Program-made: the position numbers and the translations under genes
Shown here: one piece after another, positions 2 to 63,000 of the stretch
Layout: each line of letters starts with the position of its first letter
How positions within the stretch are numbered: position 1 is the first letter of the stretch
From: Candidatus Omnitrophota bacterium
GTDB taxonomy: Bacteria; Omnitrophota; Gorgyraeia; Duberdicusellales; 4484-171
DNA: 64,000 nt
Direction: 5' to 3'
Assembly: GCA_037146775.1 (NCBI GenBank)
Contig: JBAWWL010000001.1
Coordinates: 69,464-133,463 of the forward strand
The notes under the pieces: generated by a model
Seen by the model: only the letters and a program-made list of their open reading frames with translations
Database searches by the model: none
What the model was told of the DNA's origin: nothing

Positions 2-3000
2 GGTTTGATGCTTACCCTGCAAGACTATTTTCTTAAAAGGGCGCATTATGATTTGATACCCGAAACCATATATTATCCCGGCTATAGCAATGCAACTTAT
101 CTAGATGAATACTGCTTTTCTCGTGAATTCAGGGCAAAGCATGGAGTGGTCGATGAGGCGGCGAAAGAGATTGTGGATAGAGTTGGCCAGGATAATTTTT
201 CTAAGAAAGATAGGCCTAACCATATACCTACGGAGGCGACAGAAAAGATTGTTGCTGCAATTAATGCCTGGATTGATATAAATACAGATATAAGGTTATT
301 CCTTGACGATCTTTTGGGAAAACAAATAAATGCTTTAAGGTTACACTCAGGGCAGCCATTAGTCCTTTTTGATACCTTAGCATCAGGAAAAACAGTAATG
401 ACCATTGCGGCATATATTAGGCGGATGAGGCCTGATATTTCCGTAGATGTTATGATTGCTGCCTCCAAAAGTTACTTGCCTGGCGTTATGCATAAATATG
501 GAGGTATTGGCGCAGCGATGTGGGAACCGGTATGGCCGTTTTTCTTTGATGGCTTTGATGAAAATGGGCTTGTGCAGTTTTCTCAAGATAGAATTGGGAG
601 CAATATATTTGATTTTCTTTTATTTGCCATGCTTAGCTATAACCGTTCATTGATTGGTCAAGACTCTGAGTTAGAAGGAAGAATACTTAATGAAGCCCGA
701 GTGACTTATGGTGATAAATGGCAATTCCTTTTTCCTGAAGCAGAAGGAAGCGTTAGCTCTCCCTTGCGCTCTGCCGGCGATGATAGATTTAAACTTTTAT
801 ATCAGGCAGCTAAAGGCGCGCAGAGCGATTTTGGCAGTCTTTATTGGGAAATTCTTGATGTGTTTAGAAGGAGAACTTCTTTTGATAGAATGACTGATTG
901 TAAATATGTAGATGGAGCTCTATCGTTTGTTGACCGGCAGATAATTTTCCCGCTTCTATATCGACTTGAAGAAAACCGTGAGTCCCCGGTTGCCTTAACG
1001 CCTGATGAGGTATTTGAGTATTTTTGTAGAATTAGCGAAGCAATCGATGTTATATCCGGCTTATACGCGCAGGTTCGCTGGGATAAAAATATTTCTCAAA
1101 CTGCGGCCTATGAATTAAATTTTGACGATGGGCCTTTACATAGAATCATTGAAAAGGTGCTACTACCGTTACAAAGAGCTTTGAATCGCCATTGCGCGTC
1201 TTCGCCGTTTTTATCATCAAGTGAAATCGACAATTTTTATTCTCCCAACAATGCTTTTGGGGAGGGTAATTTATTATCACGCCACCATCAGGCAGATTTA
1301 ATTATTGAGGTTTTCCCTAAGACCATAATAAAGAGAGGAAGTGTCTATAGAAAGAAGGGCTGGCAGGAGACTTTACCAATAGACTTAGCGTCACAAAACG
1401 CAGATAAAATCCGCTCGGCAATACAGACTTTGAATGATATTACGTCGGCCGATAGCGACATAATAGCAAGAGCCCGTAGGTTTGAAGAGGAAGTTACCGT
1501 GGTAGAGGTAGCTATGCCGGGCCACTTCTTGCTTTACGGAAGGGACGAGCAAAGCCAAGCTTATTACCAGGTAACTCACATTGGCAAGGAAAGTAAAATA
1601 CTTTATATTCCGCGAATGTTTTTGGAGGACATAGAGTACCCTCAATATATTGCTACAGTTTTGCATCATGACCAGATGGAAATAGAAGATTATTCCGCCA
1701 TGATTGCAGCGGGCAGAATCATTACTTATACGGTCGTGGAGGAAGCCCATCAGCGGGCTTTGGGGGTAGATCCTTTCGGAGTTTATACAAAAGTTATCAC
1801 ACGATGCGAGCGCATGATGGCAGTGAGTGATATGTTTACTACGAGCTTAGCAAGAGAACAAAGAAAAAGCGTGCGTAGGCAAATTGTAGAAAAGGTAAAT
1901 CAATTAAAAGCAGTTAGGCTAGCAGATCAAAAATCAAGAAAAACTCTTCCCGAAGAAAGATTCCTCTTGGCGGATATATCAAAATTGAACATTCAACTAG
2001 CCTGTCTTTACGAGATTGATGATAGCCACAATAAGGCAGCAAGGCATTATAAGTTAGCTATCGAGACTTTAAGCGTCATTAAAACAGATGCAGAGATTGA
2101 TGTTGGTTTCCTTCCTTTGCAGATTCACACGCGTTTAGTGTATATTTTAGCACGGCAAAAAATGTTGAGCGATCTAAGAAGAGAATTCAATAATTTTGCC
2201 AAGCTGAATATCGGAAGAGCGATGAATGATGCGGAAAGAGTTCTTTTTACTCTTTATATGGATCGCAATTTTGAAGCTGTAAAAATGACGGTCATTGAAA
2301 TTTTAACGCGGCACCTTAAGGCGGCGCAAGAAGATAGAAAACCCGCCTTAGAGCAGTGGCGGATATCTCAGGCTATAAAATTTATACAAAGATGTAACTA
2401 TGCTCCTCCGACAAATAATGGTACCCCCAGTGCTTCCTCGGCGGTTAATAATTATTTTTCGCAATTACACAGGCTGTTATCGCCAACCTTTTTATTAACC
2501 AGGAAAAGTTCAAGTTCACGACTTGCTACGAGCTACTCACGGCTAAACTTTGCCAGCTCGCCGCAGAGCCTTGGTGATAGCGGAAGATATAATGGAGAAA
2601 TTGTCTTGGATCTTGGAGAGCCGCAGGCAGTGGATAGATATTTCATGAGAGAACTCAGATGTCTTGAACAGGCTAAAGTATCTTTCCTTGGACAGCTAAA
2701 AAATGCCTTTCGCAGAGGCTTTTTCCACGAGACATCAGCTTTGATAATAATTGATTTAGATGATAATTATTTAAGATTTGACGTTGATTTAACAAGGAAA
2801 TTTTTGAGAATAGTTTCTCAACAAGGAGAGCATAAGGTAGGCCTCCTGCTAAAAGGCGAATTTATCCAGCAAGGCCCGATGCCCCAAATATTAGTGCCTT
2901 ATGCTGATGTCTGGGTGGCGAGTGGAGATGGAGAAGTTACCCCACTCCTTAAATATATTGGAAAATTTGTAGACGAAAGATCAATCGTTGATTTAACATC

Positions 3001-6000
3001 CGAAGAATTGGATGAAGAGTTCCTGGCTAAGGTTTTTGATGGTATTGAAACCGCAGGCATTATGGGAAGGACTTTATTGGAAAGATGCATAAGAAAGCCT
3101 GTTTACTCAAAATTAGTTAAGGCGAGAATTAGGCAAGTGCAGATAACCCTCTTAGAGGGGATATTGGGAGATTTTTATTGGGATGTTCGTCCAATGGTCG
3201 CTTACGAAAAAGAGAGGGCCGGTATTGAGTGGCATACGCATCGTTTTAACAAAGATAACCACCTTAGTTTAGTTGACATAATTCATTGGGATAGGCCTAA
3301 TAAAGCAAAAATAGTTGTTACTGAAACAGCAGATGGCCAATCTTACAGGTTAGGGTTATATCGCCCCAAAAGTCGTAACGCCGTTAAGTGTGCGCGTAAA
3401 GATTATGATGCCCTTATAGATAGACTGGGCATAGAAGCTGCAGTGATAAATGAAGAAATACCCGAAACATATTTTTATAAACGTTATCTTAACCTTTTGG
3501 AAAGAGACTCGACTCAAGGTAAGGTTTCCTCGGCGGTAAAAAAATCCCGCATCGGACAAATCGTGGATTCATCAGCTAATTTTTCTTCAAGTCCAATCAG
3601 GAAGAAGCGCAATCAAGGTAAGGTAAAAAGAGATAAATCAACAGAAGAGTTTGAGCGTAAGCTTTTAGAAGCTAGGAGATTTTTGTGGCGATTGTCTCTG
3701 GTAGTTACTATTATTTTTGTGCCGATTATGTTATCGGTTTCAGCTAAAACTGCTTCAATTCTGGGTATAGCCATTGCAACAGTAAGCATTATTCTTGTAC
3801 TTACCAAATATATTCCGGCCTTACGGGCAGAGCATAAATGGGTTCTGGCCAGCGGTGTCAATGCCGCAACGGTTCAAGCTAATTGGTTTATCCGATTAGT
3901 GCGCAGCACCCAGCGTTTATTTACGGCGCTTACCTTGAGGCTAGGCATGGCAGTTGCCCGTTGTACCGGTGCTCGCGCGAAAATAGAAAATGAAATTAGA
4001 TTAAAGATTGCACAAGAGATAGCCGAAACCAGAGCTTCTCTTGAAGCCACATGCCAGGAACTTGCCAGGATACGTCAAGATTTAGATAGAGAAAGGCTGG
4101 AACTAGAGCAGGCGCGTACACGTCTTGATCAGGATAGACGTGATTGGGATAAGGCGCGCGCGGTAAGAGAGAAGGAAGTTACTCAGGCTCGTCAGACGCA
4201 AAGTGCTGCTGACCGGGCTTCCCATGCCGCTTGTGAGGCGCAAGAATCATTAATCCAGGCGCAAACAGAATGGGATAGAAGAAGACAATTAGCAGAAGAT
4301 GGTATTGCTCGGAGAATGCAGCAGCTAGCCTTACAGGAAGAAGAGTTAGTAGAGAGAGAAAGGCGACTTAGCGATGGGCAAGTAGATTTAATAAGACAAG
4401 AAGCAGCATTACAGCAAAAGGAAGAGGATTTAGAAAGGCGTCAACGCGCCGCTCAACAAGATTTAGATAGTCGGCATAACCGCCTTCGTCAGTGGATGCG
4501 ATCTCTCTTACGTCAAGGCAGATTCTTGGATCAAAAAAGAGCCAACGTGGATAGAGAAGAGCGAGAATCATTAGCTAGGGCAGAGGCTCTCAGGGTGCGT
4601 CAGGAACAATTATACCGACAGGAAGAATCGATTCGAACACAAACCAGAGAGCTTCGAGCTATGCAAGATATACTCATGCAGGATTTAGCAAATCTTACCC
4701 GCGAGAGGATTGCTTTAAGCGAAGAGGAACTTTCGCTTTCAGCTCGTTATGCCGAAATTGACTCTAGGATAGCACAGCTTAATACAAGGATTGCTTTGCT
4801 TGAGAGTATGCTTGGCCAGTGGCGCGAGGCAAGAAATTGGTTATTAAGCGAACAGCGCAAGCTAGACGAACAAGAAGATTCTCAAGGTGCGCAAGCAAGC
4901 CGCCTGCAAGCTTTAGCTGATGAGTTAACTCAGCGAGAGCAAGATTTAACCCGAGGTTTTTCTGATCTCGCCGCTTGGTGTACGCAGATGGAAAGATTGC
5001 AACAAGATCTTTCTCAGCGAGAGTCATTGCTTGTTGAGCGGGAAGCCCGGGCGCGAGACATTGAGGAAGGACGTTTACCTAAGGCTACAGATGAACTTAT
5101 CAGATTATTTGTTGAATGGCAGCAAAGAATCGCTATCGACCATACTTGTCTTTTTGAAAGAGAAGGTTTATTAATCCAAGAAATATTATCAAGTCTGCGC
5201 GCTGCAATATCTCTTTCTGCACGTCTTTCTGTGCTGGATTTTGTTCTACGAAACAGAATGCATGAAGCGGTAAATACGCTCTTAATAATTATTGTCGATA
5301 AACTCGATGAATCGTTTACCAGCGCATTATCTTCTACTGAAGAAGAAAACGTTATTTCTTTGTCGCGATTGATTGCGCCGGCATTATTAATCGTGGAGGG
5401 TATATCAGAACTCAGGCCAGCAGTAGATGGGGTTGGTATAGTCATTCCGCAAACATATACCGGTTTCCCCGCACGGATTTTAAGAGCACAGCGTTTTATC
5501 GAGGAGCGTTCGTATAGATTTGCCCAAGAGAGCCGTGATATTACAACAGAGGTAGAAAGTAACGAGGCATCTCTTACTAAAGGCCAAGCCTTAGTAATTA
5601 CGCATCGATTTAGCCGCCGACGCATTGTTTTAGAATGGAATGGTGAAACTGAATTTGTGACTTTTAGTCCAAAGCCGCTGGTTAAATTCACTCTTCATAC
5701 TCCTCTTGGCCTATGTCTTGTAAAGGGCCAGGAGTCGTATTGGTCTCGAGCTCACCAGCACCGCCCGCCTTTATCGCTGCACCAGAGACTTGCTAATCAC
5801 AGAAGACTTACCACAAGTGCTTCGGATACCGCTTCTGGAGTTTATAAAGAAAATGGCGTTGAATGTCTTAATCAGGCGAAAAAAGAAGGATCGTCTATAT
5901 ATATTTTTATAGACGATATGATTGAAGAATCAATGAACCACGGAATTGCCTTTTTGATTGACGAAATGGTGTGGCTATTGCGTTTACACTTATTAAGGAT

Positions 6001-9000
6001 GAGCGATGACTCTCAAACAGTTTTTGTTAGCGTGCATGACCCATATAAAATGTTTGAACAGCCATTAGTTATTACTAATGCTCGTGAGAGTTCATCTCCT
6101 TTAAGACAAATTATCGCTTCCCGGTCAGATTTTAGCGTTGAAGAAATAGCGGCGGTATCAAAAGTTTCTGCTTACGCTTTAGCCGGCCGTGATTTTGACC
6201 CGGCAAGAGCAATGTATTATATACCATTTTTACGCTTCCGGGCCAAAGAAACAGGTTATGCTAATGTGGTTAGTTATGTGCAAGCAATGACAGGGGGAGG
6301 CTCTTTATTACCGAAAGAGAGAACTGTGCGAAGGGAGCGAGATTATCTTTATGGCTGTTTCAATGGCTCTTGGGATGCGCATCCAGGCACATCCGGACCG
6401 GGCTTTGAAGAAAGAACTAAGAGGTTTCTTCTACAGCACATTAGAGATCTTTTAGGGCAAGGCAAGCAAGGAACTGGGAAGGTTATCCTTAAAGATATTG
6501 GTCCAGGCCGCGGTAAAATTATACCTCCGGAATTAGTACCATTGCTAGAATATTTAGCCAAGTTTATCCGTAGCCCTACAGGATGGGAACTGGTTATATA
6601 TGCCTATGATGTGCAAACCAGCCATTTGTTGGATTTAGAAAACCTATTGCTACAGCAACGTTTTCCTTTCGGTACAGTCCGGCTTAATTTTAGATATGCT
6701 GATTTAAGAGATAATAAACAGTTCCGCTATATTTGCCAGGAGCAAAGTGACATAAGTATCTTCCGTAACATCCCTGCGCCGCAAAATGCCCGGCAGCGGC
6801 AATATTTGCGTGATTTATTAAGAAGCCGGATTTCTTCTGGTGGTTTTCTCGCCTATAAAGTTTGTCAAGGAGAAGAACAGATTCTGGGTCCGATTGGAAT
6901 CGATCTCTCAGTTCCGTTTCCGAGTCAAAATCGCTTCAGCTTATTGCCAAAATTTAGTATCGGCAGTTTATTATCGTGGTTGCATGCCAGTTCTAGCCCG
7001 TTACAACAGCAAGTAGAAATAGAGCCGGTTAGGAGCTATCTGGCTAAATTAGTACTTAGTCATCCCGTTATTGGTCGTAACGACAGATTACGTAGTTTCT
7101 TTATGACTGCTATCCACCGAGTGAAAGAATATCCACATTTTGAAAAACTAAATCCTCAAGAAATCATAAGACGACCTTTATTTATTATGTTTTATCCTTC
7201 ACCCAGAAGAGATATGGATAGGTTAATCATTCCATATAATGTTGTTTCTTTAGCAAGTGCATTAGCAGCAAAAGAAATTAATGTAGTCTTGGCGCCCATG
7301 CCGGAAGAGTTTGCTGCTCCGCCATATTATCGTGAAAATCAAGTTAATGTAGAGCGCAGTTATCCTTTCTTGCACGATTGGCTGGTTATGCTCGTTCAAC
7401 GCTATGTAGATATATTCCGGGCATTTGGCTTGAGTAGCGATGAAGCAATGGAAAAAATAAATATCGGTATTTCTATGTTTGATGCCACTTACTTGGAAGG
7501 ATTAGCCTTAATTGAAATTACACGAAGAATTTTACCTAAAATACGTGTATTTGCCGGTGGCCCGCTCGTTTCCGCCGAAGGAGAAGCAAAAACAGCCCTT
7601 AAAGAAATGATGCATAATATGCGTCCTCATGGGCCAAATGTTTTGATTAATGGAGAAGCCGAGGAATTATTACCCGAAGTAGTTTGGAAATTAGATGGTT
7701 TAGCCGCCGATAAAGCTATTAGCGAATTAACCGCTCATCAATTTGATGATAAACAAGGATTAGCTTTAGCTTTTGCTGGCAGATGCTATGAATTTGGCTT
7801 TGAGAGGAAAAATTTTATTCCGCAATTCCGTATGGATACTTTGAGTTTTTATCCGGAATTTGTCGCTGAAGACGTGAATATTCTTTATGTCCCGGAGCGA
7901 GGCTGTCGGCGTAATCCGCGCTGCAGTTTTTGTTCTTTCACTATGGTACCGGGTGTACGTATGCCTCAATCCGAAAAAATCGTGCGTGAATTACGAGATA
8001 TCGACAGAGTTGTGGGCGAGTTTAAACAGGATTGGAGGGCAGGTGTTTTAAGCGGCAACTTTAGAAGTTTATATGATTTTCCGCTTTCAAGAGTAGACAG
8101 AGAATTTGTTTATCAGTTTAGCTGTGCAGTTTTAACAGAAATTACCGGCGATATACAGGCGTTAGGTGTTTTACCTGCTAATATTGCTCACCATCTTAAT
8201 TTTTGCAGGCAATCTGGGTATTTGGCACAGCTTATTCAAATAGCTACCGCGCTACATTTGCACTATCGAGTTGATATGTTGGTTATCCTGACAAACCTGG
8301 TAGCAAGTAATATTCTTTGTGAGAATAAAACACGATTAATCATAGAAGATGATAGCTTTTTACAGAGAAAAAGAATAGCTATGGAAGTAATACAAGCGCT
8401 TAAGACAGAACCTTTAAAAAACATATGTTTAATAGCTTTTCAGGCTCACTTGGCTGATTTCAATAAAGCGGGATTTGAGGGCGATGTTGCGTTAGCTCAA
8501 TTAGTGAGTGAAGTATTAAAAGACCTAGATCAGAGTATAGTAACTGGCTTAGAAAGCGGCAGTAATAAAAATTTAGGCGATTGGGGAAAAGGCTTTGATT
8601 GGCCATGGGCTTACCAACGTATTCGGTGGCTTGACGAGAGAAGTGTCCATGTTGCATTGAATATAATTATTGCTGGAGAAGAAAATGTTCCTCAAGAAAT
8701 AATCGAGTCTTTAGGTAATTTAGCCTATTTACTTTTGAGTACTCAATATGTAACTATTGCCTATGTGGCTCCTTTTGTGATGCCTTTAAGAGGTTCAAGA
8801 CTAGGAAGGAATTTTGACGCACGCAATCATTCCTGTGCTTTAGCTTGCGGTTGGGCAGAGAGGTATTTAGAAAAACCCATAGTTCTTATGGCTTTCCCTC
8901 GCGATGAAGTAGCATTAAGAGTGCTTATAGCGTACGAAGCAGATTTGAGGTCTTGTGCCGGTGCCTCAAGGGCTGAAACAGTAACAATTTTTAGGCGAGT

Positions 9001-12000
9001 CATGCAGGAATTAAGAAACACAGCGCGTCATGTGCAGCACCCGGATTTAGCTTTAATCGAAAGGGTATATAATGAAAAAGAAGAAATAGTTGTTAGCGTT
9101 TCTAGCCCTCTTAAGGGAACGCTATCCCAGTTAGGGGGGGATACCTGGAATATTGTTTCTTCCTCAATAGCGGTGCAAATTAAAAAAATTATTAACGAAA
9201 TAGAAATTAGTAATGATGATTCGCAACAAAAACGAAATGCTGAACAGTTGCAGCAGATTCTTCCTCAGGATACTAACCTAAAGCTGACAACTATCCAGGT
9301 GAGTATATTGATAAATGCCATAAAAAGAGCTACGGAGCATTATGCGCGGTTTAGCCTTGCTGAAGCTTTAGGCCAGGCAATACGTAACAATCCTATTTTA
9401 GTAGAAGAAACAATTATGGTTATCGGCCAATGCCAAGATTCTTCTGAAGTTTACTATTTTTCTCATGCCCTGCAAAAAGCTATGGAAAATAATTTAAGTA
9501 TTAAATTCTCCTTGCCTCAGGCCGGTATCTTGGTTGATGTTATTGTCAAGTTTGCTTATGCGCCTGTGCGTTTATTGCTTGGCCGTTGTTTGTTCCAGGC
9601 GCTGCAAAATGATTTGTTTCTAAAGCTTACAATTACACAAATTAAGTCATTACTTGAGGTCAGCAAGTTACCGGATACGCCGGATGCGCTCGTTTCTGTC
9701 TTAGGTCAAGCTTTCAAAAACGATCCTTCGCTGAAACTTGAGGTACCGCAAGTGCAAATTCTAGTTGATGGGCTTAAAAATGCAAAGCGTGACGATTTAC
9801 GGTGTAGCTTCTCCTTTGCGTTAGGCGTGGCAGCCATCAATCACCATCCTTTAGTTGCAACTATCATTGATGCTATCGATGGCTGCGATGATAATATGGC
9901 ATGTTACCGTTTCGCCAATTCCTTGGACCAGGCTTTAAGCAGCGACCGTTCTGTAGTGCTTGGTGATGATCAGGCACGTGTATTGGTTAAAACGTTAAAA
10001 CGTATATATGCTGCAAGTCATGTGCAGAGAGAAGCTTTACCTGGGCATATCGGAACTTTAGTTCGCTCTACACCGAGGGTTCAGGATGATAATATTGAGT
10101 TTATGTTTGTCACTGTTTTAAGCCGAGCGGTTTTTAATCGGCATGATTTATTTGTATTTTTGAGCGAGGTCATAGAATATCTATTAAGCATAGATATGCA
10201 ATATTTATTAAGACTTGTCGATGCTATTCATGCCGAAATTCTGTCTTTGTGGCTTGTGCCCGATAAAGTTTATGTTTATGTACAACTATTCTTGGCAAAA
10301 ACCGATTTAGTAACTGCAAAAATCCTGCTTTCAAAATATTTCGAGAAGTGTCCGCAAAACAAATTTGCTTCAAACTTAGCCGAGCGCGGTGATTATGACT
10401 GGCCGCTTATTTTAAGCACCATCGAACAGAATCTACTCATGCAGCCATGCTATCGTGATGAATGTGTGGCAGTAGTTACCAGCGCCGAGTACGACCAGCA
10501 GAAGCTCTTGGCGGTGATGCTTAAGCAAAGAGTCTATTGCGCTGATGCCAAACAGCGAGGGGTAGTGCCTTTGCCTGTTCTTTATACCGGAATCACCCTT
10601 TCCAATCTCAGCCAATATCTTGGCTATTATACCTTAGTCTGGGAAGAATTCAGGCAATTCATGGATGTTAACCATGGCTGGTTTCACCAGAATCCCGGCG
10701 CTTTTCTCCAAGATCCGGCAAGAGAAAACCTCAGACCGGCTAAGGCGTCAAGCGCGATAGATGCCAGCACACAAGTTCAGGGATATATCACTACCATAGA
10801 GATCGCTGCTACTAATAGCCAAATAATGACCGCCGCTCATTTTCTGATAGTCTTACTCAAAGAGCGGGAAGCTCTTACGTTAAGCCTTGCGCAAGCTAGA
10901 ATAGTTTTAGCTGCTTTTAGCCGCGTAAGTTATGATACGGAAGCCGGTTACTATCTTGCCTATGTTTTACGTACTGCTCAAGAAAGAAATAGTACTATCG
11001 TCTTTTCGCGTGACGAAGCTAAAATATTTGCTAAAGCCATCGGAGAACATCCGGAAGCCAATACCCGCACTATGCTGTCTTTTGCTTATGGCCGGGCAAT
11101 ATCTCGCGGTCCGCCGGAATTATTAACAGATTTATCCACTGCCCTTGAAGAAATCCAAGATGCCACCGCTATTAGATATTTGGTTTCAGCCTTTGAGGCA
11201 GCGCTAGAAAATAACACTTCCATTATCGTTTCAGGGGAAACAATGGATATTCTAATCAGCGTCAATAAGAGGCTAAAAAGCTCCGATACAACTTTAGCTA
11301 AAGTATTAGGTCAAATAATCATCCGTAACCCCGCATTACGGGAAAAATTGATTAATGCGATTAGGGGAAAGCAGGAGTCAGAGGTACGCTTTAATTTAGC
11401 GTATGCTTTACATAATGCGCTTGACACCAGTATCAGCATTCAACTTCCTGACAATGAAATTAATATTTTGGTCGATATTTTAAGAGGAGATACAAAGACA
11501 GATGAACGTTTATGGTTAATATCTGCCTTAGGCGTGGCTATTGTTAATAATCCTAAGCAGGTTGCTTTATTGATTACCGCTATTACAGATACAAGAGAAA
11601 ACAAAAAACGCTATCATTTAGTTTCTTCCTTGCATGCCGTCCTTAGTAAGGGAAAAGCCATTTCGCTTATATATACGCAAGCCGCTGTTTTATTGGAAAT
11701 TATTAAAGGAATTAATGAAGTAGATATACGTTCACGTTTTGCTGCCACTCTGGCTTTAGCTGCGGCTGACAATCAAGAGCTTGTCGCGCTGCTTAATCAG
11801 GCGCGAGATTATCTTATAAATATAAATGATTCTGATAGCATTATCGAAATCGTTAAGGCGCTTACTTTCAAAGCGCTTACCCATCAAAAAGCTGCCTGGT
11901 TTACGGTTCAGGAATTTTATTTCTATTTAATATTTTTAATGAGAAAGGCGCGCATAAATGAAGTAAAAGATCTTGCTAAACAATATCTTACTGCTTACCC

Positions 12001-51000: not shown

Positions 51001-54000
51001 TATGCAAAAATTTGTTTTAAGTCGAAACGGTGAGCCTACCGGCTTAGGCGTTCCTCTGCGGGTGTATACCATGCAAGATGCTTCCTCGCCGCTTAGCGAC
51101 GCAGAAGATAGCGGTAGCGCTGATTTAATGCGCGATCTGCCTTTAACCTTAGCGCAGTGGTGGGAGATTATTGACAAAGAACGCCAGACAGGCAGACTTT
51201 TTGCCGGAATGGATTTAGATAATTTAGTCAGTGCTTTTGAGGAAAGTCTCAAAACACGTCCCAACCGTGGTGTCTACGCTATGGTTACAGCTATACATAC
51301 GCGTTTTGCCCGTATTGATAAGGCTTCAGAAATATTAAAGCAAGGGCTAGCCTTTGAACCAGAAAGCCAAATGCTCGTTGCTCTTGACCGGGAAGTATAT
51401 GGAATTGCAAGAATGATGCGCGATAGATTAAGTCCAAGGACTGATGAGGATAAATTTTTACACCGGGTGGTTGTCCCTGATGGAGAGGGCGACTGTTTTG
51501 CGGATACTTTGGGTTTTGACGGCCGCTGGCAGGTTTATGATTTTTCAAAAAGCCATGCATACATTGATACTCCCGCAGTGCTACAAGTGCTAAAAGCTTT
51601 GCAATGGAATATTCAAAATTACAAATATGTGGATGTAGTTATGCCGGATTTTTCACCCGAAAGAGTAGAATTAGCATATCTTGATTTTGGGCAAGTTTAT
51701 ATTGCCGAGGAGAGTATGTTACCCGGCGCTATTATAGATGAAAAAGATATTTTCTTTTTTGTTCAACCCGAGGAAAAGGCTTCGCGCAGCAAGGTAGTTG
51801 TTTGTATGACCCCTGCGTTCTTAGTCATTGAAAGAAGAGAGCAGATGCGTAGAATCAATAATGTTTTCGCCGGCGGCACCTCTTGTTTTGTGGCATTAGA
51901 AGAAAAGTATGAAATGAGATTTTCTGATGACGCAGAAGTCTCCAGAGAAACTCCCAGAGTGCTTTGCGTTTCTTTAAGTGAAGCTACTGCTCACGGCATA
52001 GATGTTTTAGAGGACTCGTTACTACGTGCTGGGATAAAAGCAGCAGCCAGAGAGATGCGCTGTCTTGATTTGCTCGATAACTATATGGATGAATTCGCAC
52101 ATTTAGAAGAATTAGACGGAATAAGCCCTAATGTATTTTGTATTTCCGTAGTTAATATGCGTACAGAATGGGCGGCACTAACCATTAGAAAAATTAGAGA
52201 ATTTTTTCCCGAAGCACTAGTTATTATAGGCGGTCCGTCTGCCCAGTATCCGGAACAACTTGCGGCATTAGTGGTTGATTTTGATTTCTTGGTGCGAGGA
52301 GATGGAAATGAAATACTTCCGGAGTTATTACGGCTTGTGGGGGGATACTCAAGACAAAGAATATTACCTCAGGCCGTACGGGAAAGGATTATGCAGCTTG
52401 CCGGAGGAATTATCTATCGCTCGCCTTTTATGCTGGTAAACCAGCTTTCACATACTAACCGTGCAACAGTCGTGCATTTACCAAAGCCTCGGCGCCGTAA
52501 TAAATACCATTATTTATATTTACGTTATGGTTGTCCGCATAATTGTTCTTTTTGTAATGACCCCATGGGCCATAAGATGCGTTTTGCCAGTATAAGAGAA
52601 ACAGTGGAGTGGTTTTTATACCGCTTATGTCTTGAGCCCGGAGTTGGCCAGGATATATTTGCTTTGGAGGAACGTCTCGAGGCTTCTGCTTGCGCGAATC
52701 AACCGCTTCAGTTTACTCAATTAGGCGGAAAAATAAGAATTGATTTTTATGATGATGATTTTGCCGCTGACGCCGCCTACGTAGAGGCATTTTGCGATGA
52801 AGCCATTAGGTTGGGTTTAGGGAATTATTTTGAATTCGCTATTGTCGGCACCAATGTGATTGATTTTTTTGAGCGCGGAAATCTACGTACCCGTCTTATC
52901 GATAAAATGTGGGATGCTGGTTTTCGCATGGTGCAATTAGGGACTGATGGCCTTTCTAATGCTGCCATCCGGCATAATCGCAAAGGTTACACCCTTGATC
53001 ATCACGTTATCCCCCTTAACGCATATCTACGCGAAAAGGGTTTTGTGGTTTGGCATAATCTGATTATCTTTCCTAATTACCTTACTTATGAAGAGGCAGT
53101 GGAATGTCTGATGCTTTATGTTTTATTGCCATTGGTTTTCCCACCAGAATTTAATATCGGTATCCAGGCAGCGCTCGGAACTCATTCCAATAATTTAGAC
53201 CTGATGCTTAACCGCCATAAGTATGATTGGGGAGAATTGGGTGCTCGAGTGGATTGTGCGATTAAAGTGTGCGGCGATTACAAGGTTCCCGTAGGTTTTC
53301 CCCATTACGCTTTGCCGGTTTCGCAAGAGTTGGCTTATACCGAAAGCGAAGTGGCAAGATTGGCAAAATTGCTTGATAAAAAAAGCATGCCGCAGATATT
53401 AGCAGAAGATGTTTCTGAAGCAACAGTAACGCGAGTTATAGGAAAATGGCACGATCTTGATCGAGCGCAATATCCCCAGATGTATGCTTTATCTGAGGCG
53501 ATTATTGATCTTGGCTGTAGCGGTATATCGTTTGAAGAAACGTTAATGCGGATTAAAAGTGAAATGATTTGTTCTGGGATCCATACTTTTACCGATTATC
53601 TTAGGCATTTACGCGGTGAAACTGAGGAATTTGCCCGAGTTGGCAGGAGTTTTGTATTGCGTTTTGAAAATGTTCGGCAATCTTTACTACAAGGTTGCAC
53701 TGAAGGTATGGAGCAGGAATTGGCAGAGATTATAGCCCAGCGGCCGGATGTTACTGATAGCTATTATTTTATGCTTGAATTATTAATCAAAGAGGGCAGG
53801 TTTCTTGAGGCTATGATGTATTTACATCGCCTGCGTCTGCAGAAATATTTTGCTCCTATGTACATGAAACATATGAATAACGCACTTAGCTATGTAAGAC
53901 TTAATCCGGCAAGATTTGATCACCCCTTATTATTCGAAGATTTACGTTTTCAGAGCCATGCCTTATTTCAGTGGATGATGTTGTTTGCCGGTATTGTTGA

Positions 54001-57000
54001 AGGGCTCGGTAATAAGAACGTGTGGCATCTGAAATTTCACTATGAAAAAACAGCCAGCCTTAATAAATTATACGATATTCTTCCTACTTTTAGCGTAGAA
54101 GACAGTAAAAAACTTTTTGATGATTTTGGCGGCGGTATCACACAGTCTTTACGCGATGGCAAAACCGTTTGGATGTTCGGCATACCTTTTAGTTTTGACG
54201 GGGGAACTCTAGGTGTGAACATCAATGATGCCAGGATTGATTTTGACAGAGCCCAGCCTTTTGAAATTGCATCTAGTTCAATCGCCGATTCATACCCGCC
54301 AATGCAAGGTTTTAGAGAAATCCACAGAAGACGCACACCTATCTCAGGCAAGGAATATGATAGTCAGCTGTATTTTGATAGTGAAAAAAGAGCAGTCTTG
54401 TGGAAGGTGGATAATGCAGTGTTTGTGAGGAAATCTTACCAATCTCATCCAAAAGTAAATTTTTATCTTGCCGAGCTAAATACCCCGGTATCTGTGGTTA
54501 TGGAACGTATATTTATACGTGATCAGGTCAACGGCGATGAAACGCTTATTAATATGTGGGAGCCGCTATTTGGACACTATCTTTTTACTCCGCCCGAAAC
54601 CACCGAAGGCGCTATTTTTGCCATACAGGATTTAAGAGAAATAATTAAGGATAGAGTTTTTATCGATTTTGGAGCTGAGGCAGGAATCTTAAGTTTTTTA
54701 GCTATAGCATGTGGTGCCAGTAAAGTTCTTTCTTTGGAAAGGGAGTGGAAGCTTAGAGATGAAATCAGGCATAACAGGAGGATTAATAATTTATATGATT
54801 GGCAAGTCCAGGATTGTCGCGGCTTTGAGAGTGTGTGGCGGGACGAAGTCATGGGGGCGGTTGTGGTTATTAACATGGACGGTTATTTCTCTCCGGAAGC
54901 GTTACTTGAAGTATTAGATAAAGGAATTCCTGCGGCCATAATATTATCAGGCGGGCATTATGCCAGAGAAAGATTAGATCCGGTATTAGAAATATTAAAT
55001 CAATACGGATTTTCGAACCGGATTATAACAATAGAACCATTAATTGGGATAAATCCATTAGAGAGCAAGCCTTTTGCTACAATCATTGCAACCCGCAACA
55101 TGCGGTCTGTTTCGGTCATTAGCTCGTCTGTTAGTTCCCCGCAAACACCTAGCTCGATACCCATGGCTAATTACTCACGACTAGGCAAGGCTAGCTCGTC
55201 CATAGATAATTATGATGAACCGTATTTAGAGCTTCACGTTTTAGAGGAATTGAGTCTTTTTAGGGAAAAGCTTGAATATGGGATGAGCTTTTTTAAGGCA
55301 ATTCTTTATCATGGCACAGGATCGGAATTTTCAGAATGGGACATTAACTTAACGAGTTCGCTCTCTAGCCGTTTAGAGCCAGCAGGTATTCGTTTGAGTT
55401 TTGCAAGAGATTATGCAGCTGGGTTTGCTATAGGAGAAGAGGCGAGAATTATTAAGTGCCGCGTCAGTTTAAAAAATCCGTGGTATGTTTCACGAACGCG
55501 TTTTTTTGCATACTTTCTATTTATTGGACAAGCGCTAGAGGAGCTTGCTTTGAGGCGGGGAGTTACTTCAGAAGATAAATTGTCGATTCCCGAATGCCGT
55601 AGCTACGTTAGGCAACGCATGCTAGAGCAAGGATATGACGGGGTTGTGCGTTGTGATGTCTCGTGTATAGAGGTAATCGCCTTTCATCCGCAAGCACAAA
55701 TTGAAGTTATAGAAGTATTTTGCGCTAGCTCAGCGATAAGTTTATTACAAGACACAAAAGAAAAAATTATAAAGGCGCTTGAAACTAAAAAAATGCCGGT
55801 TGATATAGCTAAAGAGCGAGCAATACCCGCGGCATTCTCTGCTGTGGATAGTGTTTTTGATATTCATACTCGGCCACAAGCATATGAGTTAGTTCTGGGG
55901 ATGGCTCTTGGTTTGATAGCTAAAGAGATTCCTGTCTGTAGTACTTTAGAGTATGGGGTGCCTTTGGCGATTCGTGATTCTTGTGCTTGTTTGTATGTAT
56001 TTAGAGAAAATATTTTTTGGCTTACCCGGCTTGCTGAAGATTTGTATCTTTCGTCGCAAGGCCCCATAGATCCTTACCAAACCCTTATTTTGGCGGGAGC
56101 ACTTTATGGCGAAGTTAGAAGAATCAAGACGTTTGAGGGTCTTCTTGAACGGGCCAGGCAAGATGTTAATAGAGCCAGGGTTGGTAAATATCCTAATGAA
56201 GAAGGGGTTATTGAAGTTAATATCGGCACGCAGGAAATTAGTGTTAACGAAGTTGATACAAAAGGAGAAAAATTTGATTTCAAAAATCCCGTAGAAGTGA
56301 GCCAATTTAAAAGAGAACATGGACAAGCTATTGATACAGCTTTAGGCGAAAATTGGAGAGACGTTCTTTTGGCTCAAATAAATCGTGATATTGGTGGAAT
56401 TATCTTGGGCCATGAAAGTGTTTATGTAACTTTTGCTCATTGCTGTGGTGGTACTGTGCAGGGAAGAATTATTGCCAAAGTCAAGATTCCGGCTTATAGC
56501 TTAAGAAAAGCTTTAGATTCAGTTAGCGATGGCCATTCTGCAAGCTCTCCGTTATTAATAATAGAAAATTTTACCTACTGGAGTAATGATTTTGACGGTC
56601 GTTACAGCGAGGATAGGGCGTATCATTTTGCTATTGGTGGAAAACAGGTATGTATTTCTGATCTTGAGTATGTAAAGATAACTATTCTTATTAAGCCTAC
56701 TAAGGTGATATACCTTGCAGTAGACCACAATACAAGTTGGTTCCATACTGTTTTGGCGTATAAAGAGGGCATGATCGGGGGTAATGAATTATTTGCACAC
56801 ATAGATCATAAGCAACATCCCGATGACCGCGCAATAGAGGCTAATCCTCCAGGTCGGTATGAGGATATTGGTTGGCACATTCAGCATTTAGCGCAAGGAG
56901 GTGCCAGTATTACCGGATATGTTACAGCTTTGCATAAAACATTTCCTGATATGATATTTTTGTTTCTTAAGCAATCAGATGGTGGTTCGGATGGCTGGGG

Positions 57001-60000
57001 AGGTGTTAGCTTTGATTGGGGTGGCTCAATTTTTAATTTGCCATTAGAGTATTTAAATAAAATTAAGATTGCTAGTATTGACTTGGATATGTTTACTAGT
57101 GATGTTTCTTCTAAAGAATTACAAAAGAAACTCATAGAAGTGCTCAGCTATGTCAGGGTAGGAATGGTTATTATTTCTCCAGCCGGTCCACAGGAAGCCG
57201 GTCAGCAACAGGCAATATTAATGAAAGAAATAATTGAAGATTTACTTGATAAGTTGATTCCTGGATGGAGATTACAAGAATTGGGGAGTAATGCTTTCGA
57301 TCCAACGAAGAGTTCTAGTGCTGTTCTTAACGGTCATCATGAGTCCAGGCTTTATTACCCATCTATAACTATTTGGGCTGTTCATCCAACTTTACGACAG
57401 TGCAGAGAGGTGATTAAGTGGGTCGCAAAAATGCCATGGCGCAAAACCGCTATAGTAGTGATTATTCCTTCAGATTGGGAAATGGCCTTAAAGTTTCTCA
57501 GAGATCGTGTTATCGCCAATCAACACTATTTTTATATGTTTATGTGTGAGCATTATATAGACGACGAAGGATGGTTTAATGAACAAGATATGTATAAAAT
57601 CAATGAATTGCGGCTAAAACTATCCGGGCGAGGATTAATAGCTGACGATCATTATCTATACGGTCAAAATACGCCTAACTGTATGAATATTATAGCTACA
57701 TGTCTGGCTAGAGGACTTATTTATAAGGGGCAATGTTGCAGTCCGCGTTTTAGCCGCAAATATACTCCATGCAAAAATTATTGTAGCTCAAATAAACTTT
57801 TTGTTATTGAAGATTTTACAATTACTGGAAGAAAGGGAATTGGCGTTCTTAATGACGAACAGCGTCGCGATTATACTCTTTTGAGTTTACATATTTCTGA
57901 GATTGAGAGGAGATATTTTGATACCGGCAATGGCGCTACCAGTTCTCCAGCTATGCACAGAAAAATGAAAGAAAAAGAACAACAAGAAAGAAAATCTTGG
58001 TTGTGGCAGGTTATTACAGGTCAGTTTACCTTTCCGTGGCTGGTGGGAGCTGACCAGCCTGCCGCAGCCGTCTCGTATGGTTACAGAGTAATGTCTTTTG
58101 TGATGACAAAATCATATCTTTTTAGTAGCCTTGCTAATAAAGCCCCTCCGTCTGTGAGCGTTTCGTTGGTCAGTTCTCCGCAAAAACCTAACTCAATACT
58201 CGCGACTCACTACTCACGACTAGATAAAGCCAGCTCACCCAATGCAAAGATCTCAGCTACGGCAGCCAGAATGGCAGAAATTTTTAACAATACTATTACC
58301 CATCGCAGCGATGTATGCCATGAAGATCTATTATTGCGCAACCGGCGAGTCCGGGAACTAAAAATATTTGGAGATGCTCTTGTTGGGCAATCGGGAAAGT
58401 TTGATGATCTTGATATCCTGGGAATAAAACTTGAAGAATTAAAGGCTGGTAAGTTTCTAGAAATAGGCTCGGGTAAAAAATGTCTAATCGGTCGCTTTTT
58501 AATCGACCAATTAGAATTTGATTCCGCTAATGTTTATGCGATAGATCCTATGATGGAAGAACCCGGCAAAGATTTTGATAATAATAGCGGGCGCTTTGTA
58601 AAAGGTATCATAGAAGAAATTCCGGAATTATTCCGGGAAATCAGCTTTAATATGATATATGCAGCATATGTGTTTTCCATCAGAAGAGGTTCTATAAAGT
58701 CCGGTTTACGCAAGATTGACCCTGGAAAAGCAGCCCGAAATGTTGATGTATTTTTGGCGCCCGGCGGAACACTGATGGTGGCAGGTAAAGCTATGCCGTC
58801 TGACATGGCTTGTGAATTGGCAAGTAGATTAGCCCAGCCTTATATCTGTCAGCGACCGGGAAATCAACATAGCCTATATTATTACACAAAGCTTCAGACT
58901 TTTTCTAGCTCGCCGGGTTCCCCCAGCACCAGCAATAGCTCCAATTATCGTAAGACATTAGGCCTGTTTCGGAGAAAAGATGACATCGAAGCATGGAAAG
59001 CGCTTAATCCTGTTTCTCCTATTGATGAGAATAAGTTGCCACGCCTATTCCCTAAAGGGGTTACGTATGGGTCGCAATGGAATTATTTAAGAGGTGAAAA
59101 GTATGAAATGAAAGGATATGTGCATACTGGTTTAGATTTATTAGTTCCAGCTTCTACCCAAGTAAGAGCAATTGCCGAGGGTACGGTATTTATAGGAAGA
59201 TATAAACACGAAAAAGGTGAATATGTTGTTGTTGATCATGGAAAGGGAATGCTGTCCTTGTATATGCATGTCATTCCTCGAGTAAATACCGGACAGAAAT
59301 TGGCGAAAGGAGATGTTATAGGTGAGGTAATGCATTCATCAATACATCCATCCCATCTTCACCTCGAATTATTAGCAAATATGGAAATATCCACAGAGGC
59401 ATTTCCGCGTGAAGGAGAAGATACGTTGGAAGATAAGGAAATAAACAGGCGGTGGACTTTTATTAAATACAGTCGAGAAACGAACAGCTTGGATCCGTTA
59501 TTGGTTCTTCCACAGATAGCCGAAGGAGCGGTAATAGAAGATGATGATAGCATTTTGATGGGTGCCGATAAAGGTGCAGGCTACGCCAGCTCGCCGTCTC
59601 AATCAGTCTGTAGTCAACGGTCTACAGTCAACGGTCGAGAAAAAATGCAAAATTTTGGTGATAGGCTATTGATTATACCTGCCTGCCGGCCAGACACGGG
59701 CTATGGGCGAAATCACGCCAGTTCATCTATGTTGGACAGCAGCGTCGGCCTTTCTGTGAAATATGTGAAATTTTCTTCGCCAGGTATTCCTTTGGAGTGT
59801 GACTATAATTGGCTCCAGCTGCAAAAAGGTATTCTTCTTGAATCTTATGCAGGTAATTTGTCGCCGGAAGCCAGCCGTCTCTTGCAAGAGCCGCAGATAG
59901 CAATTTGGAATGATACGTTTACTCCGCGCATCTACCTTGAATTCGCATGGAAAACCTACCCCCCTCAGAATAATCCATGGGTTAGTATCTTATACAAAGT

Positions 60001-63000
60001 CATCGAAATCTCGGTACGCAAGCACTTAGAGATTAAGGCGGGAACTAAAGAGGATGAATTTTTCAGGCAATTTTGTTATATTTCTGAAAAAGAAACAGAC
60101 AGTTTGGTTAAACCTACACAGTTACAGATTATAGGATTACGAACCGATACATTCAGGGTGCCGGATTTCTGGAAAGCTCAGCTCATTTGGCAAACCTGGT
60201 TATTTTGTAATATGTGTATGGGCCATGTCCAGGGTTTTATTCCAAGGGTTTTCCCTGACACATCTATCGGGCCGGCAGGCATTGATGATGCTTTACATTT
60301 AATTTATCTCATTGGTTTGGGGGGGATGGGTATTCCTGCCAGCCTAAATATCAAAGCTGCTGATATTAAACGTTATTTTTCCTCGCTTGGCTTTGGGTAT
60401 AGCCTGATTACGCAGTGTGGATGCTCCGAGCAATCATTACTCGCAGAAGAAAGAATTCAAGAACTGGTAGAGCATTATAAGGTCACGTTAGCGTTAAAAA
60501 CGCGTACAGATTACAATATCTATAAAGCCCGGTGCGATGCCGTAGATAAATTTAATTTAGCTGATGTTGAGTCGTGGCGTCGAGAGCGAGTAGAGCTGGA
60601 ATTAAGCGCTTTAGAGCAGCAAGGATTTAAAGCCGCAGCCGAGGTGCGCAGGCGCTTAGGGTTTGCCTCTGCAAGTTCTCCATCTCTGCCCGCCAGCTCG
60701 CCGGTGACTTCTAAAGAGTGCACCATATTAGTGCAAACTGATTTCTGGAAAGAGATTTCTGATATGTATGCATGGCCAAGAAAACCTAACGTTAAAAAGA
60801 AAGATAAATTGCTTGCGATAGTAGAGGGCCAATTTATTGATTGTTTACTACTGGAGAGAGTTCAGACAATATTGAAACAATTGGAACTCTTTAAATATTT
60901 TAATTATAGATATGAGGGGTTACAAATGAACTATTTCAGTAGTTTACTTGACCACATTATTGTTAACAGTGTTGATGCAATTTTTGAGAGAATTGACCGG
61001 GGTAAATCCGGGCATCCGCGTTATAATCCCCAAGAGTCTATAGCCCAGGCCCAGGCTCAGATACTTTTCTCTTTGTGTAAATACGATGGGGATGGCCCTC
61101 TGTATGAAGCGGTTTTAACTGATAATGGGGTAGGCATATCACTAGATCTTATGCGAACTTGGTCCACATGGACAAGAGATATTTTATTTCAATATACTGA
61201 AAATACCGTTGGAAGAGCATACCTGCCAATCCCCTCATCTTTTTCAACAAAGAATAGGGAAATCTCGGGTTTATATATTGGTCAACGCGGAGGTGGAATG
61301 GTGGAGTTTTTTCTTGATGCTGAAATAGGAAAGTTTCAAGTGACTATTGATTCCTGCCAGCCAGAGCAACGGGGTTACAGGTTTATACAGAGCACACAAG
61401 GTAGAAGAAACGTTCTTAACGCCTCCTGTGCGGCAATAGGCACCAAGGTTACTTTACGCGTTAAGTGTGCCAGTCGAAAAAGGTTTCAAGAAGTTAGTTC
61501 ATGTACTACTAGCCCTCCGGATGAGAATAAAAGGGGCGAAGCGATTAGTATGCCAAAAAATGTAGAAGCAGAAATTTTTATGGTTGATGTTTTGTTCGCG
61601 ACCAGCGAAGTCATTAGTTCATCAATTTGCGGTTTGCATGATTCTGGCCCGAATGATCCGAACGCGAGCAGTGCCGTAGGTCAGGGGCTTGAGTATGAGG
61701 TTAATACGCGGTTAAGTGAACCCGCTGATTTTAAAAAAATAAACGGTACTATTGCCGTAATTGGCGCATCAGGCTTTCTTGGTAGCTATATATATCTAAA
61801 ACTTTTATGGCTCGGCGCTCGCGTTATTGGGACTTTTTGTCACACCAAGATCGCGCCGCTTTTGGCGAATAATATGTGTTATCTTGATGTAACCGATGCA
61901 CGCCAGGTAGAAAAATTCATGCAAGATCACCGTCCGGCAGTAGTTATATATGCAGCAGGAGCTGTTGCATCAAAAGAAGAAGGACGAAATACGGAAAATA
62001 TAGAAGCGTTAAATATTGCCGCCATTGATAATATTGCCAGTTACTTTGGAAGCCATTTTATCTATTTTTCCAACAGCCAGGTTTATAGTGGAAAGAATCC
62101 ACCTTATACCGTTAATGATCCTGTTGATCCGATCAACCAGCGCGGAAAAATAAAGGCTGCCGGAGAGGCAATGTTGTTTGGTCGTCACAGAGATAGCTTT
62201 GTACGTTCAAGCGTAGTACGCGCCGGATTATTTTACGGCTATAGTATGTTTTGGCGAAGAATGGATGTTGTAGGCGATATCGTGCACAGGCTTAAACGCG
62301 GCGAGGCAACGATTGAAGCCGATAACTATCAGATCAGATATCCTGTTTTGATTGATGATGTTGTGGCGCATACGCTTGATATAGTAAAACACAGCGCTTA
62401 TGGCATTAGCCATATTAACGGTTTAGAGCCAGTCACAAGGTATGAATTGGCAAAAATGGTTGCTGGTATGTATGGAGACCTTACCGCTACTACTAGTGAA
62501 ACACTTATTATTCCTAAGCAAAATATTTTCCGCAATGAACCATTGGATAGTCGGCTAGTTAATACGTGTGGTATCGAGCTTACCCCACTGGAGGTCGGTT
62601 TACGCAAGGTGGTTTCTTACTATATTTGGTCGCAATCGGACCATCCGACTAGCTTGCTCCAAAAACCTTTAGGTGCCGGTCAAGCCAGCTCGCCGCAGGC
62701 CAGCGGCTTCGCCACTAGGCGAGCGAAGTCTCGCCTGTCGCAAAGTAATGAGGCGGACTCGCCAGGTGACCCGCGCAAACTTTCTTTTTATTCTAAGCTG
62801 CCAGATGGTTTTCAAAGAAATCGCAACAAGTATGGAAGGGCTTTATCCGGCGAGTGCGAACCGTGGGCGCGGTGGGCATTTAGAAGATTGAAAAATTATC
62901 TTAAAGAAGAGAAGGGGTTGATTAAGGAAGTGTATTTGATGTTTTTATGCGATGCGAAATGTCACACATCAATTGGGCATGCTTGGGTTGAATTTGTTAC

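Follow-up and report, generated by a model that had tools for sequence, protein, structure and literature searches.

Whether the products of giant genes, of 10,000-147,000 residues, stay one chain or get cut is left open by two recent studies. Giant multi-enzyme open reading frames (ORFs) of Omnitrophota (Gorgyraeia) were described as "Archaeovorins" by West-Roberts et al. 2023 (10.1101/2023.11.21.568195), where the cleavage points are given as unknown and the question of whether the product is cut is left open, and as "class 1 multi-enzyme metabolic clusters," mostly sequence-unique, by Nielsen & Lui 2026 (10.64898/2026.06.07.730766), a paper from which the words linker, junction, motif, and cleavage are absent. 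For one of the two studies, the missing cleavage points blocked its analysis. Here we ask what joins the modules of what is most likely such a gene, using a 64,000-nt stretch of contig JBAWWL010000001.1 from a Candidatus Omnitrophota bacterium (this whole stretch is hereafter called the window), in which a short peptide, xSSPx (x, any residue), recurs. The reading that we favor, to which we give somewhat better than an even chance, is that xSSPx is the core of an inter-module junction that is held at the peptide level, was propagated from heptamer-repeat linkers, and is a candidate processing site. The motif would mark candidate positions where giant proteins might be cut or rearranged.

A Single ORF Encoding a Mosaic of Enzyme Modules

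The window reads as one ORF of 21,333 codons without a stop and open at both ends, and each of its other frames contains at least 827 stops.

2..64000, + strand: single ORF, most likely the internal part of a giant multi-enzyme gene, from the stop count per frame and the Pfam mosaic

Distinct Pfam families tile this ORF, none of them predominant: L-serine dehydratase beta and alpha, S-adenosylmethionine (SAM) methyltransferases, HATPase_c, protein kinase, guanylate kinase (GK), HAD phosphatase, several B12-binding/radical SAM domains, ART-PolyVal, M23 peptidase, an RmlD-type epimerase, HEAT repeats, and metallophosphoesterase. About 90% of the ORF residues have no family match, and sequence searches of the PDB added nothing beyond the Pfam results. 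A simple Kyte-Doolittle hydropathy window gave 19 transmembrane (TM)-like segments in a few clusters, and AlphaFold2 (AF2), run without an alignment on the 915-aa kinase-GK-HAD stretch, reached a predicted local distance difference test score (pLDDT) of only 32. Because the two preprints describe exactly this architecture in Omnitrophota, we regard the window as coming from inside a giant multi-enzyme ORF of that kind. It shares with the described giants a stop-free ORF of more than 10,000 codons and the methyltransferase, HATPase_c, HAD, radical SAM/B12, and kinase modules, and, going by the hydropathy window, it may also share their scattered TM segments; like them it is sequence-unique, and the sole relative found (see below) is annotated as Candidatus Omnitrophica. 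SecA-DEAD, C39, and S8 domains, which are common in the described giants, were not found in the 64-kb window, C39 being among the commonest domains of Omnitrophota giants (10.1101/2023.11.21.568195; 10.64898/2026.06.07.730766), and neither paper describes a junction or linker motif such as the one reported here.

SSP Is Over-Represented and Often Encoded by One Nucleotide Word

SSP occurs 51 times in the ORF, compared with 4.5 expected from composition and 6.6 ± 2.5 (maximum 17) when the sequence is shuffled within 60-aa blocks. A preliminary description of this DNA, made from the letters, had reported more than 40 xSSPx sites, and all 20 of the example coordinates that it gave fall on SSP codons. 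It had also pointed to the repeated use of AGC-TCG-CCG, to be counted against a codon-usage null, and the count bears this out: the word AGCTCGCCG (AGC-TCG-CCG) is present 11 times, each copy on the + strand, in frame, and read as SSP, as against 0.39 in dinucleotide shuffles, 0.32 from codon usage (binomial P = 2e-14), and a mean of 0.52 (maximum 4) in 2000 synonymous-codon shuffles that keep the protein and the codon usage. Across the whole ORF it is the top over-represented in-frame 9-mer, and variants with a preceding codon, gcc/act/acc-AGCTCGCCG, occur. The suggestion that SSP codons are atypical of local usage stood in part. TCG makes up 39% of the second-Ser codons at SSP vs. 11% in the background, and the order of codon classes is biased as well, being AGY-TCN in 32 of the 51 SSP, but the Pro codon CCG is not rare here (30%); AGC (20%) and GCC (22%) are not rare in the background either.

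The Junction Follows a Wider Peptide Grammar

The residues around SSP are also restricted: at 44 of the 51 sites SSP follows A, S, V, or T, and at 19 it is followed by L. The tripeptide ASS is found 37 times, and the next residue is always P (17), S (11), or A (9), the other 17 amino acids never occurring there; ASSP is 47-fold above expectation, and some module boundaries without SSP bear ASSAI or ASSAL instead. We therefore widened the P-centered motif to [A/S/T/V]-S-S-[P/A/S]-[L/I/V/Q], which is the junction and has roughly 70 copies in the window. The ASSA-type sites are the following.

10745..10759, + strand: ASSAI variant, GCG TCA AGC GCG ATA, closing an internal repeat; the identical word at 12392-12406 closes the next repeat
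18830..18844, + strand: ASSAI variant, GCT TCA AGC GCT ATA, with a 16-nt identity to 32441-32455 and unrelated flanks
16850-16864, 35036-35050, and 55724-55738, + strand: other ASSA(I/L) sites

Junctions Lie Between Modules and Are the Breakpoints of Paralogues

In agreement with the earlier proposal that xSSPx lies at domain boundaries, none of the 51 SSP falls inside a Pfam envelope (P = 0.004), and the modules for HATPase, kinase, GK+HAD, M23, and RmlD each have SSP on their flanks, 14-100 aa away from where the envelope stops. The 20 residues on each side of the junctions are enriched in S, P, T, Q, N, and G and depleted in hydrophobics. The boundaries concerned, including those of paralogous modules, are listed below; an exact core is a copy of AGCTCGCCG, and the number after SSP is its residue position.

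58907..58915, + strand: exact core (SSP 19636), upstream boundary of the M23-peptidase module
59588..59596, + strand: exact core (SSP 19863), at the downstream edge of the M23 module, with a 14-nt (2x7) direct repeat just beyond it
62687..62695, + strand: exact core (SSP 20896), downstream boundary of the RmlD/epimerase module
29432..29440, + strand: exact core AGCTCGCCG (SSP 9811), a simple site
35765..35773, + strand: exact core (SSP 11922), closing the paralogous module aa 11669-11924
46310..47239, + strand: helical module aa 15437-15746 with SSP at either end, paralogue of nt 59774-60703 and homologous to an Omnitrophota protein fragment, P0001
59774..60703, + strand: helical module copy 2, aa 19925-20234, beginning at SSP 19925 and closing at SSP 20225 and the exact core SSP 20232 (60695-60703)
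47231..47527, + strand: linker module aa 15744-15842, SSP-bounded, paralogue of nt 57941-58240; its 3′ part is the composite junction 47459-47527
57941..58240, + strand: linker module copy 2, aa 19314-19413, containing the composite junction 58172-58240 and the heptamer array 58191-58221

The paralogues locate the boundaries more sharply. The partner of module aa 11669-11924 (aa 8552-8808) also closes at an SSP (SSP 8806, nt 26417-26425, AGT TCC CCG), and in the linker-module pair nucleotide homology begins with one SSP codon triplet and ceases with the following one. The helical and linker modules are adjacent at one locus, and apart and in reversed order at the other, while three tandem repeats close at KASSAI or a near variant. 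In an AF2 model built from three sequences (predicted template modeling score, 0.64), residues 24-305 form a helical domain and both SSP lie in coil with pLDDT <50; a fold search with this helical module returned no credible match. Taken together, these results show that the junctions lie in polar unstructured stretches between folded modules, and that duplicated and re-ordered modules break exactly at them.

Several smaller features were also seen. The 14-nt (2x7) direct repeat, AGTCAACGGTCT / ACAGTCAACGGTC, lies at ~59608-59636, just 3′ of the exact core at 59588. Both linker modules contain a 22-nt identity, TTACCTTTCCGTGGCTGGTGGG (TFPWLVG), at 47316-47337 and 58026-58047, with a partial third copy at 32620-32636; it holds the Escherichia coli Chi octamer GCTGGTGG, and Chi occurs in the window only at those two linker-module sites, both on the + strand. 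A mini-module lying between paired junctions, SS[PS]-LEE..TKS.P...GGLWL...., forms a spacer peptide of ~30 aa and has two distant copies, at aa 4692-4724 (nt 14075-14179) and aa 10041-10066 (nt 30122-30199).

Selection Acts Mainly on the Peptide

Given the excess of one nucleotide word, the preliminary description had argued that the DNA or RNA itself is selected, and not protein alone. This holds only in part: the excess is real, but the dominant constraint is on the peptide. Sorted by serine codon class, SSP is written as AGY-TCN at 32 sites, TCN-TCN at 10, and TCN-AGY at 9, each far above its share of the 4.5 chance sites, and these classes are not interconvertible via synonymous single steps. 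Paralogue junctions keep SSP with other codons (AGT TCG CCG / AGT TCT CCA / AGC TCG CCG), including a switch between AGC and TCG at homologous junctions (TCT AGC CCA at aa 15437 vs. TCT TCG CCA at aa 19925), and one paralogue pair whose four-fold-site identity is 0.32, with saturation at 0.28, still closes in SSP although the codons differ. An unrelated word, GCT TCA AGC GCT ATA, also encodes an ASSx motif and is itself repeated with unrelated flanks. The junctions are held mainly by selection on the peptide.

The nucleotide identity has features of its own. The G/C share at third codon positions (GC3) is 0.53 at the four core codons vs. 0.42 expected, and the flanks are at background. At AGY-TCN sites, the three synonymous positions do not vary independently: 11 sites are all-consensus vs. 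5.9 expected under independence (P = 0.002). A master copy that was propagated and then decayed would give such linkage, and a uniform codon preference would not. The 11 exact 9-mers sit in unrelated flanks, which are fully randomized a few residues out while the core is kept, and thus copying joined different neighbors at the core, or the core was regenerated.

These observations bear on an alternative in which the DNA word itself is selected, the GC-rich 9-12-mer serving as a microhomology or recombination site for in-frame insertion, deletion, duplication, or swap of modules, and SSP being merely its tolerated translation. Such a site would explain why module breakpoints fall on SSP codons, why two copies of adjacent modules stand in different order, why the exact copies have unrelated flanks and linked synonymous positions, why every copy is direct and on the same strand, at spacings in multiples of 3, and why exact cores stand on both sides of the M23 module and of the RmlD module; it would also agree with the relative, whose contig is broken at its own nucleotide-identical GC-rich junction. 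However, SSP is equally enriched where it is written TCN-TCN or TCN-AGY, classes with no word in common with AGCTCGCCG, paralogues swap codons and keep the peptide, GCT TCA AGC GCT ATA encodes ASSx too, and neither AGCTCGCCG nor its near-matches are over-represented in other frames or on the minus strand of the window. DNA identity at the junctions is limited to 9-12 nt and decays between paralogues, and 9-12 bp is too short for RecA-dependent exchange. We consider this alternative unlikely, though the earlier suggestion of a module-shuffling recombination junction retains some support from the breakpoints at SSP, the linked synonymous sites, and the heptamer arrays described below.

The same data speak to codon-level selection for translation kinetics, whereby G/C-ending codons would slow the ribosome while the upstream module folds. 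The raised GC3 of the core would be expected in that case, as would that of the junction of the relative (0.63 vs. 0.38) and the use of TCG, a minor Ser codon, but CCG, AGC, and GCC are not rare, the synonymous positions are linked instead of being independently biased, and paralogues drift freely there. Moreover, a pause at the linker would leave the last 30-40 residues of the upstream domain in the exit tunnel. We regard translation kinetics as a highly improbable explanation.

Other candidates were tried and rejected: a frame-independent DNA signal (Chi-like, architecture word), as there is no out-of-frame or minus-strand excess; a broad GC3 rise via biased gene conversion, as only the 4 core codons are affected; and site-specific recombination sites (integron attC, shufflon sfx), as there are no inverted copies and the junctions are no more stably folded than shuffles.

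Part of the Linker Sequence Is Made from Heptamer Repeats

The second most over-represented in-frame 9-mer, TCACGACTA (SRL), occurs 5 times vs. 0.03 expected despite its rare codons CGA and CTA, and the 10-mer ACTCACGACT occurs 7 times, in two frame phases and with 7-nt spacing. Tandem Repeats Finder detected period-7 arrays (ACTCACG and related units) at 27606, 30216, 36726, 45112, and 58198. Period 7 is the sole short period with strong local arrays, and the only lags enriched beside junctions are 7 and 14, which exceed the random 99th percentile at 10% and 7% of junctions, respectively. When translated, (GACTCAC)n gives DSRLTTH and (TACTCAA)n gives YSILNTQ, which are the linker peptides SRLTTYDSRLNK and HSILHTQYSILDK upstream of SSP. 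Seven composite elements of ~75 nt, built as SS[PS], array, SS[PS], align with 65% mean column identity, and their terminal AGCTCAC/CG is in the register of the array, with a 5/7 match to the unit TACTCAC. In addition to the two composite junctions in the linker modules, the following composite junctions were located, as was a spacer with a heptamer array at 45098..45214.

2507-2563, + strand: composite junction SSSSRLATSYSRLNFA-SSP, with the terminal exact core AGCTCGCCG (SSP aa 852) at 2555..2563
27584..27652, + strand: composite junction made of AGCTCGCCG (SSP 9195), TACTCAG TACTCAA GACTCAC GACTAAA, and AGTTCACCG (SSP 9215)
30197..30265, + strand: composite junction made of SSY, ACTCACG x4.4 (30216-30246, peptide INSRLTTYDSRLNK), and AGCTCGCCG (SSP 10086)
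36695..36775, + strand: decayed composite junction made of SSS, ACTCAAT x4.4 (36726-36756, peptide HSILHTQYSILDK), and GCC AGT TCA TCC (ASSS)
45098..45214, + strand: two exact cores, SSP 15033 (45098-45106) and SSP 15069 (45206-45214), bracketing a 36-aa spacer with CAGAGGT x4.6 (45112-45143)
55133..55201, + strand: composite junction made of AGT TCC CCG (SSP 18378), the heptamer-derived QTPSSIPMANYSRLGKA, and AGC TCG TCC (SSS 18398)

The unit at 45112-45143, CAGAGGT, differs from the others, and therefore arrays of more than one unit type sit at junctions. At least some of the linker sequence thus derives from heptamer-repeat DNA, as possibly does the SSP core itself. The arrays are imperfect, with 83-95% matches, 2.3-4.6 copies, and at most 2 perfect units in succession. 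A phase-variable contingency locus acting by slipped-strand mispairing was rejected because the arrays are too imperfect, and an origin from cyanobacterial or Beggiatoa-type heptamers was rejected because TAACTGA, the STRR units (STRR1-3), and HIP1 are at or below chance in the window.

According to the model that we favor, linkers would arise from 7-nt slippage arrays, whose three-frame translation would yield SRLTTYDSRL peptides with the SSP core in the register of the array, and junctions would then be copied together with modules, through duplication or through illegitimate recombination at junctions. Young copies would retain the master codons, while older ones would drift synonymously with SSP kept, and the GCC-AGC-TCG-CCG identity would be a trace of how junctions originated and spread, not a separate DNA or RNA signal. 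The 7-nt-array linkers and the breakpoints on junction codons suggest how such genes may grow and reshuffle without loss of frame.

A further alternative would keep the slippage and dispense with recognition: in a passive flexible linker grown by 7-nt slippage, ASS[PAS] would be inherited from an ancestral linker and its small polar residues would be harmless. The heptamer arrays, the family of 75-nt composite elements, and the polar junction flanks are all consistent with it, and SSS and SSA look like decay products, because P, S, and A at the fourth position are single-base neighbors (CCN, TCN, GCN). In contrast, a grammar to which all 37 ASS tripeptides conform and an ASSP excess of 47-fold would be unusual in an unconstrained linker. 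SSP is also retained by paralogues at synonymous saturation and where the serine codon class has switched, and the core is preserved where the flanks are randomized a few residues out. A purely passive linker seems to us rather improbable.

A Single Relative Carries a Junction of Its Own

An exhaustive HMMER search with one module against 1.84 billion representatives found one true relative, P0001 (33% identity, E = 7e-16), which fills, without a stop, the 2,561-bp contig JAQUNN010000248.1 (here L001) of GCA_028717585.1, a metagenome-assembled genome of a Candidatus Omnitrophica bacterium. This contig and the window have the same GC content, 42%. P0001 closes the homologous module where the window does, but the junction there is another one, P[S/P]SLDNGGEV. 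SLDNGGEV is present twice, with identical codons at 8 of 8 positions (P = 3e-4) and unrelated upstream flanks, and it is GC-rich (58% vs. 42%), with a share of G/C-ending codons of 0.63 vs. 0.38. As P0001 carries a junction of its own, a nucleotide-identical, GC-rich, lineage-specific junction is not peculiar to the window. The contig of the relative terminates inside the second copy of the junction, as expected if assemblies break at repeated junctions.

No relative was found in the GTDB representative genomes (searched by protein and by the junction DNA word), IMG/VR, or PLSDB, nor in the JGI metagenomes, which were searched by protein and by the junction word of the relative. Word-indexed protein searches also returned no relative, which is weak evidence for long queries: window positions 54902-64000 (3,033 aa, with clear M23 and RmlD domains) had no word-indexed match, though their domains are evident.

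The Junction as a Candidate Processing Site

A fixed grammar of four to five residues at every join would be suited to being read by one dedicated enzyme. Among the candidate enzymes, a processing protease appeals most, since it would resolve the question that the giants pose, and a candidate cleavage site that would release modules from a polyprotein is our preferred reading of the motif, which we hold tentatively, as a serious possibility that falls short of an even chance. A modification site and a purely structural linker are the alternatives for this step. The junction resembles the sites of 3C/3CL-type viral polyproteins in being a short fixed peptide grammar at the joins of unrelated modules, and small spacer peptides lie between paired sites as in viral polyproteins, here of 20, 20, 20, 20, 32, and 36 aa. 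Unlike in viral polyproteins, the host is a bacterium, the sites show partial nucleotide identity and heptamer repeats, and no cognate protease was found in the window.

Several points weigh against this proposal or against other parts of the reading that we favor. A protease hunt in the window (relaxed Pfam by module, NCBIfam, PADLOC, and regular expressions for catalytic motifs) returned only M23, and there is no HExxH in the 21,333 residues and no C39 or S8 domain in the 64 kb. The protease may lie outside the window, because the gene continues beyond both ends. Pro directly after a small-x-small motif would block type I signal peptidase. The boundary test rests on few domains, since Pfam annotation covers only ~10% of residues. 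As for the origin of the junctions, heptamer arrays are detectable at only ~7-10 of the ~70 junctions, the period-7 signal around SSP falls to a nonsignificant z = 1.8 when the strong arrays are left out, and the unrelated flanks of the exact copies mean that simple duplication is insufficient without recombination at the core or codon-level selection. Finally, the data are those of one orphan gene and one short relative of 2.5 kb; within that limit, the junction motif adds a feature to a type of gene that was described only recently. From the sequence, the assignment to Omnitrophota likewise rests on the relative and on the domain content.

The modification site could be a substrate for Ser O-glycosylation in an Ala/Ser/Pro sequon or for phosphorylation by kinase modules of the ORF, and modification would protect or regulate the linkers. 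The fixed Ser-Ser core flanked by small residues and the protein-kinase modules in the same ORF would suit such a role, as would the extracytoplasmic parts that giant proteins of this kind often have (10.64898/2026.06.07.730766), but no matching transferase was identified in the window, and the SLDNGGEV of the relative is chemically different. From the sequence, we judge modification very unlikely.

The preliminary description had also listed RNA processing signals, a suggestion that the data do not bear out. Here the giant mRNA would be cut at the junctions into module-sized pieces, or the junctions would serve internal ribosome entry or restart; speculatively, the 7-mer arrays could be read by MazF-type endoribonucleases with long recognition sites. 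However, the junctions have no Rfam match, six junction RNAs fold as shuffled sequence does (z -1.2 to +1.1), and the motif is locked to the reading frame. A Shine-Dalgarno sequence with ATG within 30 codons past the junction was found at 0% of junctions, although 4.6% of random positions have one, and Met is under-represented after junctions. An RNA-level signal is therefore, in our estimation, barely credible. Internal translation starts after junctions were rejected on the same grounds, namely the absence of Shine-Dalgarno plus ATG and the Met depletion.

Returning to cleavage, a bolder and doubtful extension is that the giant Omnitrophota ORFs encode true polyproteins, in which a lineage-specific junction word (ASS/P-L here, NGG/EV in the relative) would be cut by a co-evolving protease, giving dozens of enzymes in fixed stoichiometry, and in which the heptamer-made words would also be in-frame splice points for module gain, loss, and shuffling. 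The junction grammar provides concrete positions testable by proteomics, as well as rational split points for structure prediction and expression.

Comparison with Known Systems

Polymorphic toxins offer one comparison: in CdiA (VENN) and Rhs (PxxxxDPxGL), a short peptide that is conserved at the DNA level marks exchangeable modules and is thought to guide recombination, with one junction per protein, between a constant part and one variable toxin tip. The window resembles these toxins in module exchange with breakpoints at the junction, paralogous modules starting and stopping at SSP in differing order; it is unlike them in having ~70 junctions between enzyme modules, and in that the DNA identity spans only 9-12 nt and decays in paralogues.

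Heptamer repeats are known from heterocystous cyanobacteria, whose STRR are intergenic heptanucleotide tandem repeats, and from Beggiatoaceae, whose TAACTGA direct repeats are also intergenic heptamers (PMC4679880). The arrays of the window are similar in consisting of 2-5 copies of a 7-nt unit that recur in one region and in one orientation. Unlike STRR and TAACTGA, they lie within an ORF and are translated as linker peptides, and their units are NACTCAN and CAGAGGT.

The Gly-Gly in the junction of the relative, SLDNGG/EV, resembles C39 double-glycine leader processing, which we note as a lead and not as a result; unlike in C39 leader processing, the junction of the window has no Gly-Gly, and the window has no C39 domain.

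Other Features of the ORF

About 8 of the TM-like segments are clustered at aa 12290-12545 (nt ~36870-37640), ~40 aa past the decayed junction, in a region without a Pfam match and without a protease signature. Smaller TM clusters are located at aa 1235-1265, 8592-8707, and 11704-11885, each starting 25-45 aa past a junction. The ORF contains at least five B12-binding/radical SAM-like modules, at aa ~2490-2680, 10150-10300, 14230-14320, 17330-17690, and 21180-21290. Weak similarities were also seen in the window to a LanL-type kinase, to a radical SAM C-methyltransferase of ribosomally synthesized and post-translationally modified peptides, and to components of the MADS defense system (the mad2 methyltransferase and the MAD6 kinase).

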